A DNA stretch of 64,000 bases. It comes from an uncultured cyanobacterium (GTDB taxonomy: Bacteria; Cyanobacteriota; Cyanobacteriia; Cyanobacteriales; CAWCAG01). Below the pieces are notes generated by a model. That model worked only from the letters and a program-made list of their open reading frames with translations. It ran no database searches and was not told the origin of the DNA. The DNA lies in NCBI GenBank assembly GCA_963793425.1, contig CAWCAG010000007.1, positions 704,001-768,000 on the forward strand. Reading direction: 5' to 3'. Positions within the stretch are counted from its first letter, which is position 1; the number at the start of each line of letters is the position of its first letter. Below, piece by piece: positions 56,947 through 59,059 of the stretch. Position numbers and translations under genes: made by a program.

Positions 56947-56973
56947 TTAATGTTTTTGAAAGATAATGAAGGG

Positions 56974-57084
56974 TCTAGTGGTCTGTCAATCTCGATAATA
57001 TGGGTTACTCGCTTTTTTATACCTTGTCCTAAAAGAGTTTTAGAGATTGTTAACGCACAAAAGCAAAAATGACAGACCACTAGA
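56974..57084. mobile_element. 111-bp MITE-like element
   Basis: Perfect 15-bp terminal inverted repeats TCTAGTGGTCTGTCA / TGACAGACCACTAGA, with CTAG at both ends and an AT-rich interior. Confidence 0.75.
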
Positions 57085-57196
57085 AGATAGGATAAAAGCA
57101 GGCTATAAAACGGAAAACCCTTGTTCCACACAAGTTATCGCTAATTTTGCCTATAATGAAGTTCCAAGTTAGGTTAAAATAGAATTAGGTTAAAGG

Positions 57197-58012
57197 ATGC
57201 GATCGCTGATGAAACTGCCTGACTATGAGCGAGTAATTTATAAGCGTAACCCATTGATAGAGGTTGTGTGTCAAGTTCGCTTTCCTACTATTTTGAAAAT
57301 TAGTAATCAAGATCCTGTTGAATTTCAAGATAGAGTACGTTTTGAATATCCTCTGTATGAAGTCCACAAATCTGTTAGTATTCCAGGAAATCAAAATGAG
57401 ATACTTCAGTTAGTTCAAAAAATAGGTTTACCTTTAAACTTTCAAGACACTACTTACAATTTCAGATCGGAAGATTCAAAGTGGCAAGTGTCATTAAATA
57501 AAGACTTTATTGCTCTAGCAACGACTAAATATGAAAGGTACGAAATATTCAAAGAAAAACTTCAAGAGGTAATAACAGTTTTTGATGACACATACAAGCC
57601 ATCTTTCTATTCAAGAGTTGATTTAAAGTACCAAGATTTAATTATTCGCTCTAACCTTAAACTCGACCAAAAGACAGACTGGAAATATTTAATTCCAGAG
57701 CATATTGCTCCTGAGTTTTATACACCAGAAATAGCGGACTCAGTAAAGGCATTTATGAAAAATGTGGAAATCGATGTTGAGTATGGTAGATTGCAATTTA
57801 AGCATGGCTTGGTGATGACACAAGATCCTGAAAAGGGAAAAAGCGAACCTGGATATTTGCTTGATGCTGATTTTTTTGTAGACCAAAAAACAAGGAGAGA
57901 AGATGTTTGGAATGTCCTCGATAAATTCAAGGAATCAGCAGGAAGATTGTTTAAATGGAGTATTACCGACAAACTCCATAATGCAATGGAACCCGAATCA
58001 ATCCACTCCTAA
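57197..58012 (+). CDS. TIGR04255-like sporadically distributed protein
   Basis: Y.RNPLIEVVCQVRFP, F.SED..W.V.L..DFIAL.T..Y.RYE.F, R..L.Y.D, YLLD.DFF, F.WSIT..L. The start may be the ATG at 57209. Confidence 0.8.
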   Translation: MRSLMKLPDYERVIYKRNPLIEVVCQVRFPTILKISNQDPVEFQDRVRFEYPLYEVHKSVSIPGNQNEILQLVQKIGLPLNFQDTTYNFRSEDSKWQVSLNKDFIALATTKYERYEIFKEKLQEVITVFDDTYKPSFYSRVDLKYQDLIIRSNLKLDQKTDWKYLIPEHIAPEFYTPEIADSVKAFMKNVEIDVEYGRLQFKHGLVMTQDPEKGKSEPGYLLDADFFVDQKTRREDVWNVLDKFKESAGRLFKWSITDKLHNAMEPESIHS

Positions 58013-58355
58013 ACTAGACAGACTGAAACTAAGCCAAGGCGATATCTCTATTGTAGTCAGGCATTCATACAGTGAGCCTGAGCAACAAGCAATATCACCT
58101 ACGTTAGAAGTGAAGTTTTCCTACGAGAATTCAACAGAGTGTTTTGACTTTCTGAAATGTTTTCTTTTGCTTATTAAAATCACTCAACTTCCTTCGGAAG
58201 CAATTCAGGAATCTATAGAAACTTTAGAACAAATTGCAGATTTTTATAGCTATGATTCTTCTGAAGATTTATCATCAATAGTTACTTCAGAAATAGTATC
58301 AGGTGAAATTGTTACTACGGAAACTAAATCTCCCTTAGTTTTAAGTTGGGATTAA
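57981..58355 (+). CDS. Small acidic hypothetical protein (about 124 aa), overlapping the end of the TIGR04255-like gene
   Basis: ATG at 57981 in the frame of the track ORF 57903..58355; helical core LP.EAIQE..E.L..I.DFY and acidic tail ending SPLVLSWD. Confidence 0.65.
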   Translation: MQWNPNQSTPKLDRLKLSQGDISIVVRHSYSEPEQQAISPTLEVKFSYENSTECFDFLKCFLLLIKITQLPSEAIQESIETLEQIADFYSYDSSEDLSSIVTSEIVSGEIVTTETKSPLVLSWD

Positions 58356-58362
58356 TTTATTC

Positions 58363-58971
58363 ATGTCAGCAGATTTAATTTATAGGGTTTCTACTAAGGA
58401 ATCAGCACTAAGACAGGGAGAAATCTTAACAGGAGTAGTTCAATACAAACCTAAAATCGACCAGATAAATACTTCTGGATCAAGTAACATACCTTTTCAA
58501 AAGATAGTCCATCCTTATGCAATTATCGTCAGCCAAGACTGCGATTTAGATTGGGATTACGATGCTAGGCGCAATACCAAAGAAGATAAGTCTAAAGAAC
58601 ATAAACGACTTAACTCAATACTCCTATGTGAAGTTGATACAGCCAAAGCCATTAAAGACAACAAAAACAACAATATAAATAGTAAAGACTGGAACTATAT
58701 TAAGACAAATCGTCATCAGAGATATCATTTTTTTCAAGCAGTTACTTCAGAAATTGACTTAGACAAAAAAGGGTTACCAGAACTAACTTCGGATTCTAAG
58801 CAAGTCTTTGGAATAGACGCGGAGAACCTTTACTCTCAAATTAGAAACGGTCTGTCTAAACGACGGAGTATCCTTATAAGTCCTTATTTGGAACATTTCT
58901 CTGTCCGCTATCATTTCTTTCATCAAAGAGTAGCTTTGCCATCACCGATTACAAGTATTAAAGAAGGTTGA
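58363..58971 (+). CDS. Hypothetical protein with PemK/MazF-like motif order
   Basis: LRQGEIL...PYAIIVSQDCDL...ILLCEV...D.KQVFGID...L.SPY.EHF...RVALP; starts 7 nt after the previous stop. Confidence 0.65.
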   Translation: MSADLIYRVSTKESALRQGEILTGVVQYKPKIDQINTSGSSNIPFQKIVHPYAIIVSQDCDLDWDYDARRNTKEDKSKEHKRLNSILLCEVDTAKAIKDNKNNNINSKDWNYIKTNRHQRYHFFQAVTSEIDLDKKGLPELTSDSKQVFGIDAENLYSQIRNGLSKRRSILISPYLEHFSVRYHFFHQRVALPSPITSIKEG

Positions 58972-59059
58972 CATAGTTACCCGGAGTAATACTCCATTGT
59001 CAGAATAGTAAAGGGTCATTATTGTTGAATAAGTATCAAATTTCTATATTGTAAAAAAT

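Follow-up and report, generated by a model that had tools for sequence, protein, structure and literature searches.

Toxins of the CcdB/MazF superfamily are built on an SH3-like barrel of about seven strands with a C-terminal helix. MazF-type members employ an Arg and a Thr/Ser as the general acid/base residues of catalysis, CcdB is a gyrase poison and not a nuclease, and in both cases the C-terminal part of the antitoxin (MazE or CcdA, respectively) binds the toxin. The subject of this article is an operon of three genes, referred to hereafter as the triad, which lies in a stretch of 64,000 nucleotides (nt) that we call the window (positions 704,001–768,000 of contig CAWCAG010000007.1, assembly GCA_963793425.1, from an uncultured cyanobacterium with a genome of 5.28 Mb). 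Its first gene encodes a protein of the TIGR04255 family, its second a small acidic protein and its third a protein that is predicted to adopt the CcdB/MazF toxin fold. We consider it rather probable that the triad is a tripartite toxin-antitoxin (TA) or defence-like module, in which gene 3 would be the toxin, gene 2 its neutraliser and gene 1 a constant controller.

Modules in which one constant protein is associated with exchangeable partners have been described before. In toxin-antitoxin-chaperone (TAC) systems, a constant SecB-like protein stabilises the antitoxin and senses phage, as outlined in 10.1101/2024.02.24.581848. Panacea (PanA, DUF4065) is presented in PMC8832971 as a hyperpromiscuous antitoxin domain paired with many unrelated toxin domains, and within the NetFlax network MazF/PemK and PIN are named among the recurrent toxin folds (PMC8832971, PMC10440598). 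When considered from the point of view of its arrangement alone, the triad is classed as type II TA-like, in that its genes are adjacent and co-oriented, the putative antitoxin is encoded upstream, and its spread is patchy, mobile and multicopy. The features to which the text refers are the following (window coordinates):

56973..57087, no strand: MITE-like element (miniature inverted-repeat transposable element) of ~111 bp in the spacer between an acyltransferase gene and gene 1, with terminal inverted repeats and other copies in the genome
57197..58012, + strand: gene 1, TIGR04255 family protein of 271 amino acids (aa), identified by its NCBIfam match; alternative start Met5 at 57209
57892..57897, + strand: Shine-Dalgarno (SD)-like AAGGAG within gene 1, 5 nt 5' of the ATG at 57903
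57903..58355, + strand: gene 2, open reading frame (ORF) for a small acidic protein of 150 aa, or of 124 aa from the alternative start at 57981; frame +1 with respect to gene 1; proposed neutraliser/adaptor
58149..58247, + strand: conserved helix region of gene 2 (family consensus), residues 83–115, FLKCF...LPSEAIQESIETLEQIADFY
58299..58352, + strand: conserved C-terminal tail of gene 2 (family consensus), residues 133–150, SGEIVTTETKSPLVLSWD
58363..58971, + strand: gene 3, 202 aa, CcdB/MazF-type fold with ~85 residues of helical insertions by AlphaFold2 (AF2) model and structure comparison; proposed toxin/effector
58534..58545, + strand: gene 3 signature Q58-D59-C60-D61, directly after strand 45–55, with C60 and D61 invariant and Q58 at least 90% conserved
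58795..58797, + strand: codon TCT for Ser145 of gene 3, where the family has Phe

The predicted fold of gene 3 and its family

Prediction of the gene 3 structure by AF2 with 149 diverse representatives (150 sequences in all) yielded a model with a predicted local distance difference test (pLDDT) value of 95.9 and a predicted template modelling score (pTM) of 0.89; a run with 39 close relatives, with a pLDDT of 47, was discarded. When the model was aligned by VIA-align to 48,161 chains, the 12 that reached a Z score of 5 or more were all CcdB, MazF, Kid or CptN, and the next unrelated chain scored 4.1. Staphylococcus aureus MazF (4mzm_A) ranked first (Z 10.1, 112/115 residues, root-mean-square deviation (rmsd) 3.3 Å), and MazF-mt3, MazF-mt1, Kid and CptN reached 9.8, 9.5, 8.3 and 6.5, respectively. 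The rows listed by Foldseek for the Protein Data Bank (PDB) were likewise all MazF, PemK, YdcE and MoxT toxins, with probabilities of 0.92–1.00, target-normalised template modelling scores of 0.50–0.63 and E-values from 3.8e-3 to 4.6e-2, none of them at or below 1e-3, and PemK-like proteins ranked first in a viral structure library as well. The match covers residues 14–191 of the model, in which gene 3 is a complete MazF-type barrel with ~85 inserted residues, chiefly the helices at 59–81 and the stretch 94–140.

At the sequence level, gene 3 has no meaningful match in Pfam, NCBIfam or PHROGs, and sequence and profile searches of the PDB gave noise only (best E=0.13). The family to which it belongs is nevertheless very large: a word-indexed search proposed 480 candidates, 437 of them relatives at E<=1e-3, of which the best 120 carry no Pfam domain and only hypothetical or uncharacterized names, and an exhaustive profile search recovered 2,081 cluster representatives (50% identity) at E<=1e-3, 1,182 at <=1e-10 and 478 at <=1e-30. 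A Pfam scan of 150 family members found no relevant domain; one representative showed a match to YAcAr, of the SLOG family (E=8.1e-5). In a wide alignment of 150 sequences sharing at most ~50% identity with each other, C60, D61 and R120 are invariant, and conservation reaches 90% or more at Q18, E20, Q58, D65, N116, D132, D144, F145, R167, R168, H178, R182 and R189.

MazEF, PemIK and Kid-Kis are thus the closest described systems with respect to gene 3, whose fold they share. Further points of likeness are the small acidic protein encoded just upstream, the patchy mobile distribution and the presence of a true PemK toxin in the same slot of a sister operon (L153, see below). In contrast, gene 3 has ~200 aa instead of ~110 on account of its helical insertions, lacks similarity to the PemK profile and has invariant residues of its own, whilst gene 2 shows no MazE/PemI-type domain and the whole is led by a conserved TIGR04255 gene. 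CcdAB of the F plasmid is alike in the fold of the toxin and in the upstream position of the antidote gene, but similarity in sequence is lacking, gene 3 is of far greater size and the triad has a third gene.

A mobile unit with interchangeable last genes

The coherence of the triad was examined in a survey of gene 3 with one genome per species (94 relatives, 80 loci retained), the loci coming from Cyanobacteriota, Chloroflexota, Acidobacteriota, Planctomycetota and Gammaproteobacteria. Gene 1 was located by tblastn ~350–450 bp upstream of gene 3 in 76/80 loci, two of the four misses being cut by a contig end, and a same-strand middle ORF lay between genes 1 and 3 in 78/80, both exceptions being cut at a contig end. 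This arrangement is far beyond chance, and the three genes are one conserved unit, as the original prediction had proposed on the basis of a single locus.

The surroundings of this unit are unrelated from one locus to another and mostly housekeeping (Pfam, 139 flanking ORFs of 29 loci). Mobile elements among them include IS1595 (L023, L074), IS4/5 (L080) and an integrase (L065), and insertion beside or within insertion sequence (IS) elements or integrases is typical of selfish modules. In L074 (2089–6610), an MFS_2 gene occurs in two halves (profile positions 245–426 and 3–234) split by an IS1595 transposase and a whole triad, which suggests that triads may be spread by transposons. Other notable neighbours are a type I restriction-modification system (L061), MmeI/Fic/T5orf172 (L013), PIN pairs (L021, L047), a reverse transcriptase of the diversity-generating retroelement type (L029), nSTAND (L052) and CHAT (L017). 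In four Chloroflexota loci (L060, L068, L076, L079), an SbcD-like phosphoesterase gene (TIGR00619, 1e-33 in L060) and an ORF of ~130 aa precede the triad; this was judged to be probably inherited (vertical) synteny, and the phosphoesterase gene was rejected as a further part of the module.

The distribution is patchy at close range too. Gene 3 was detected in 4/31 related genomes, the window's own included, two of the four matches being weak (E=1.5e-8 and 3.2e-4), and was not found in the genome of the same genus (G001, 97% complete). There, the acyltransferase gene and murT, which flank the triad in the window, were matched on different contigs, and the segment ~56950–58979 of the window had no counterpart.

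TIGR04255 itself occurs in 36/301 genomes of the window's phylum (44 matches) and in 32/401 of the phylum to which a gammaproteobacterial carrier belongs, and two genomes have four copies apiece. It is also present on 8 plasmids, of which 5 are conjugative. In a first survey of its loci, one or two same-strand ORFs abutted or overlapped the TIGR04255 stop in all 29; in a second, such an ORF chain followed in 34/37 under a greedy rule, and of the three loci missed, one (L140) holds a true triad with an overlap beyond the limit of that rule. The last gene of these operons varies. It belongs to the gene 3 family in 11/29 loci of the first survey by hidden Markov model (HMM), and in the second in three loci at E<=1e-75 and, weakly, in L156 (3e-4); a divergent branch of that family also occurs in this slot (hhalign probability 99.6%, and 88.9% in L130). 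Elsewhere the slot is taken by a canonical PemK_toxin (L153; 1.1e-18, 67.9 bits against a cut-off of 23.1, hhalign 98.7%), by HEPN (L131, 4.7e-8; L137 with a weak, sub-threshold 0.006), by PIN (L136, 6.8e-11) and by at least four more clusters without family assignment. Some of the middle genes have weak matches to Xre-type helix-turn-helix (HTH) domains, and two plasmid records annotate HTH/regulator proteins in that slot. In one of the plasmid loci (L175, Rhizobium plasmid pCB3060_2, 177–2474), a multiubiquitin/ThiF adenylyltransferase/DUF6527 cluster stands directly upstream of a three-gene TIGR04255 operon, with an IS110 transposase downstream.

Middle-gene clusters coincide with last-gene clusters, as expected of cognate pairs. 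In addition, a proline-aromatic/hydrophobic-acidic tail at the end of the middle protein is found only with last genes of the gene 3 type, and the PemK, PIN and HEPN operons have other C-termini. The tail motif thus follows the type of last gene, with gene 1 remaining the same throughout, and this points to binding of the tail of gene 2 to the toxin. The suggestion of the original prediction, that gene 1 reads the tail as a C-terminal tag in the manner of a chaperone, is not favoured by this co-variation.

As for the local setting, the three ORFs are intact and packed on the + strand just as had been read from the sequence, with the gene 2 ORF ending at 58355 and 7 nt separating it from gene 3. 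One flank is an acyltransferase gene (PF01553, 4.9e-23) and the other is murT (MurT_C, 1.8e-31), both of which had been named beforehand. The MITE claimed directly upstream is real: its terminal inverted repeats of 34 nt (56974–57007 and 57051–57084) are 76% complementary, and four other ~111-bp copies of 98–100% identity in the window's own genome (G000; C7:97887-97997, C5:1222885-1222995, C5:144271-144383 and C5:481353-481464) bring the near-identical copies to at least five in total. The triad is AT-rich only moderately, with a GC content of 0.349 against 0.402 for the window, which is below the 10th percentile (0.365) of 35 long ORFs.

Genes 1 and 2 and their overlap

The assignment of gene 1 to TIGR04255 holds without reservation, since the NCBIfam profile matches over positions 2–252 of 252 with 7.9e-47 and 160.2 bits, far above the curated cut-off of 30, and the genome scan gave the same result. 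The true start may be Met5 (57209), because the ESM Atlas record of gene 1 begins at residue 5 and Met5 is the sole invariant column in a broad TIGR04255 alignment (A6). Gene 1 is the best conserved member of the triad, with a mean column identity of 51%, the values for genes 3 and 2 being 42% and 27%, respectively, and in TIGR04255 polar and aromatic residues are conserved at many positions, potentially those of an active site. Searches for a more informative relationship were unproductive: Pfam gave no SecB, HTH or other DNA-binding match, the only match being DUF4085 below threshold (E=0.043); sequence and profile searches of the PDB returned noise only (best E 0.24, followed by 0.0033, confined to a small part of a human bromodomain protein, and by 0.29 for a broad profile); and no internal duplication was found. 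Clusters matched in the ESM Atlas are either unnamed or named TIGR04255, and the annotated records inspected carry no product name beyond TIGR04255 family protein.

Gene 2 can be read from two starts, and the original prediction, which had given the overlap with gene 1 as 57981–58012, was right about its existence and probably not about its extent. The start is most likely the ATG at 57903, which gives an overlap of 110 nt instead of 32 nt, because an AAGGAG-type motif precedes only this codon and not the one at 57981, and because the whole family offers evidence in the same sense. Relative to gene 1, the frame of gene 2 is +1 in 74/74 loci, and no stop interrupts this frame over 30 codons or more 5' of the gene 1 stop in 69/74, compared with 3/74 in the other (control) frame; from the stop density of each locus's own gene 1 body (0.075 per codon overall), a stop-free stretch over the last 34 codons in the +1 frame would be expected in ~7/74. 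In the 69 loci, the first in-frame start falls 101–197 nt inside gene 1, for an overlap of usually ~100–125 nt, and an SD-like motif precedes the internal start in 46/69 (19 of them strong), compared with 9.9% and 2.3%, respectively, at random positions in gene 1, a control that is lenient in allowing up to 8 candidate codons per locus. Independently, the annotation of the Rhizobium plasmid places the start of the middle gene 104 nt inside the TIGR04255 gene.

Synonymous sites in the overlap show no extra constraint (0.554 versus 0.569; 52 of 69 sequences, <85% identity), and the near-invariant Gly19 of gene 2 is forced by a Trp codon of gene 1 read in the +1 frame, for which reason the N-terminal motif of gene 2 was rejected as independent evidence. 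We conclude from these patterns that the start and the open frame of gene 2 are under selection, and that the amino-acid sequence of its first ~35 residues is not.

The gene 2 protein (isoelectric point, pI, 4.28) has no meaningful match in Pfam, NCBIfam, PADLOC or PHROGs (nothing below 1e-3 in the last), nor does Pfam recognise a DNA-binding or MazE/PemI-type domain in it. Two parts are conserved, namely the helix region, with the consensus llKCl..lP..aL.Ea.E.Le.i..fY across 79 distinct sequences and E103 conserved at 90% or more (alignment A4), and the tail, with the consensus G......vRPP.vl followed by acidic residues. Thus, the protein with a distinctive C-terminal tail that had been noticed is a real family in which that tail is conserved. 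The middle protein looks modular on sequence grounds, because several relatives share only the N-terminus of gene 2. In L109 (762–1577, - strand), a 272-aa middle protein resembles it over the N-terminal ~124 HMM positions only, and the gene is followed by a 152-aa ORF without assignment in place of gene 3; L147, L148 and L151 combine a gene-2-like N-terminus with a different last gene of 225–233 aa.

Weighing the proposed module

In the mechanism that we propose, the triad would be a self-contained, horizontally mobile TA-type module with a constant third component. Gene 3 would act as a growth-arresting effector, most likely of the nuclease type like MazF, Kid, ToxN and CptN and less likely as a CcdB-like gyrase poison. 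Gene 2, the translation of which would begin within the 3' end of gene 1, would be its cognate neutraliser and would bind it by means of the helix and the proline-hydrophobic-acidic tail. Gene 1 is the constant lead gene of a broad class of operons, in which middle and last genes are exchanged as pairs. In analogy to SecB-type TAC, its protein would control the pair, whether it stabilises or holds gene 2 or responds to a trigger, for example infection by phage. It would not itself neutralise gene 3, because two loci (L006, L012) keep the gene 2 core (HMM positions 62–161), with its conserved helix region, and a full-length gene 3 in the absence of TIGR04255, even when this is sought with a broad HMM.

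Several observations weigh against this proposal. PF02452 (PemK) finds nothing in gene 3 at E<=1, whereas two genuine PemK genes elsewhere in this genome reach 3.6e-24 and 3.3e-22, and hhalign of a 40-sequence gene 3 profile with 20 PemK proteins gives a probability of ~1% over 31 columns. These columns pair RQGEI..HPYAIIV with RGDI..RPvvI, that is, the same stretches from which the original prediction had deduced a PemK/MazF order of motifs; what remains of that deduction is the MazF/PemK/CcdB-type fold in the AF2 model, and not membership of the PemK sequence family. By motif mapping, the position of the MazF Arg corresponds to H50 of gene 3, which is not conserved at the 90% level in the wide alignment. 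Since there is neither a PemK match nor a highly conserved residue at this position, RNase activity of the gene 3 protein cannot be assumed from its sequence. Moreover, the window copy has a pI of 9.08, but the family median is 5.9 and only 5/77 members exceed 7.5, so that complementarity of charge between an acidic antitoxin and a basic toxin was rejected as a general argument, gene 3 being mostly acidic to neutral in the family. Of 149 representatives, 99% have Phe at residue 145, as do all 38 close relatives, and the Ser of the window copy, a one-base difference, may attenuate it. Finally, we infer the toxicity of gene 3, its neutralisation and the contacts between the proteins, and the role of gene 1 is drawn from analogy. 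A complex prediction for genes 1 and 3 with gene 2 as partner scored 0.15 (mark 0.32), which gives no answer and counts neither for nor against the proposal, and no fusions of gene 3 with gene 1 or gene 2 were found among 269 proteins.

The non-nuclease CcdB comes almost as close to the model as MazF does, aligning over its full length (95/95 residues, Z 9.0, rmsd 2.5 Å). Gene 3 could accordingly be imagined as a CcdB-like poison of a protein target, for instance DNA gyrase, or as a non-catalytic binder, and the module would still be TA-like. The conserved residues of the family are indeed unlike those expected of MazF, and its acidic to neutral pI is unlike that of many RNA-binding toxins. 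We nevertheless hold this to be improbable: the MazF chains have the top scores and make up the rows listed by Foldseek, the last genes of sister operons are of RNase-type folds (PemK, HEPN, PIN), and the many conserved Arg residues (among them R17, R120, R167, R168, R182 and R189) fit nucleic-acid binding.

The context of the loci also tells against the proposal in part. Viral contigs (searched with 2 patterns), phage records and plasmid records yielded no relatives of gene 3, and clear defence genes stand beside the triad in only ~4/29 loci (L013, L017, L029, L061; PADLOC), other matches being to generic domains. An enrichment in defence islands is not shown by these counts, for which no background control was run. 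Together with the predominance of housekeeping flanks, these observations would suit a cellular, non-selfish system for the handling of RNA or nucleotides, in which TIGR04255 would be an enzyme, its conserved polar and aromatic residues possibly forming the active site, and the MazF-fold protein a non-toxic RNA-binding subunit. Such a role is very improbable in our view, given the patchy spread across phyla, the absence from the same-genus genome, the several copies in some genomes and the insertions beside or within IS elements and integrase, and it would have to accommodate the replacement of the last gene by PemK, HEPN or PIN.

A further possibility is that genes 2 and 3 form an ordinary type II pair, to which gene 1 would be a mere accessory, such as the regulator in paaR-paaA-parE, or a passenger. 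The persistence of genes 2 and 3 in the two loci that lack gene 1 would agree with this, a separate regulator would be sensible for a gene 2 devoid of a recognisable DNA-binding domain, and PMC8832971 describes TA loci of three genes that include a regulator or an accessory gene. However, gene 1 accompanies gene 3 in 76/80 loci, is the best conserved of the three and has no HTH or other DNA-binding match in Pfam. The frame of gene 2, open inside gene 1 in 69/74 loci, speaks for tight coupling, and a second regulator would be redundant in several other TIGR04255 operons, whose middle proteins carry an HTH of their own. We thus judge a simple pair to be unlikely and retain the tripartite module, with gene 1 as its constant controller, as the preferred reading.

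Among the systems with a constant component, TAC (HigBAC, CmdTAC) shares with the triad the number of genes and the association of a constant protein with exchangeable toxin-antitoxin pairs. A SecB-like nature of gene 1, which had been put forward for comparison, finds no support in Pfam at the sequence level; a distant structural likeness may exist. The constant protein is encoded by the first gene in TIGR04255 operons and by the last in TAC, and the antitoxin-like tail co-varies with the toxin and not with the constant protein. Panacea and NetFlax resemble the TIGR04255 operons in the pairing of one conserved family with many unrelated toxin domains. TIGR04255, in contrast, is separate from the toxin-adjacent middle gene and, because genes 2 and 3 stay together without it in two loci, is probably not the neutralising domain itself, unlike PanA.

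The lack of a characterised system with this composition, which the original prediction had noted, was borne out in PADLOC and in the literature. PADLOC-DB 2.0.0 had no match for genes 1 and 2 and a chance-level one for gene 3 (E=0.021, 30 residues). A full-text literature search retrieved no paper naming TIGR04255, and the parts of a comparative TA survey from 2009 (PMC2701414), of PMC8832971 and of PMC10440598 that treat three-component systems and third genes describe no module led by it, with the qualification that the name itself and the supplements were not searched and that other labels are possible. Since no description of a TIGR04255-led module was found, what we regard as new is the constant third component and the very large MazF-fold family, within TA-like modules that are already known in kind.

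Beyond the triad, it is conceivable, though we are doubtful, that TIGR04255 marks an unrecognised and widespread class of tripartite toxin systems engaged in defence by abortive infection, an analogue of SecB-type TAC assembled from unrelated parts. In such a class, a constant sensor or holder would be followed by an exchangeable adaptor/antitoxin, starting ~100–125 nt inside the TIGR04255 gene, and by interchangeable warheads, for which the expanded MazF-fold family, PemK, HEPN, PIN and at least four families without assignment are the candidates.

The analysis provides a first functional context for TIGR04255, and a family of very large size (2,081 clusters), which had no Pfam match among the 150 members scanned, receives from it a fold and a likely role. 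With their long and conserved out-of-frame overlap, genes 1 and 2 represent an unusual mode of translation that is accessible to direct tests. Should the tripartite logic prove true, the several candidate toxin families without assignment in the last-gene slot would gain a handle through guilt by association, and TIGR04255 would represent a second, independently evolved constant third protein that controls swappable toxin-antitoxin pairs.

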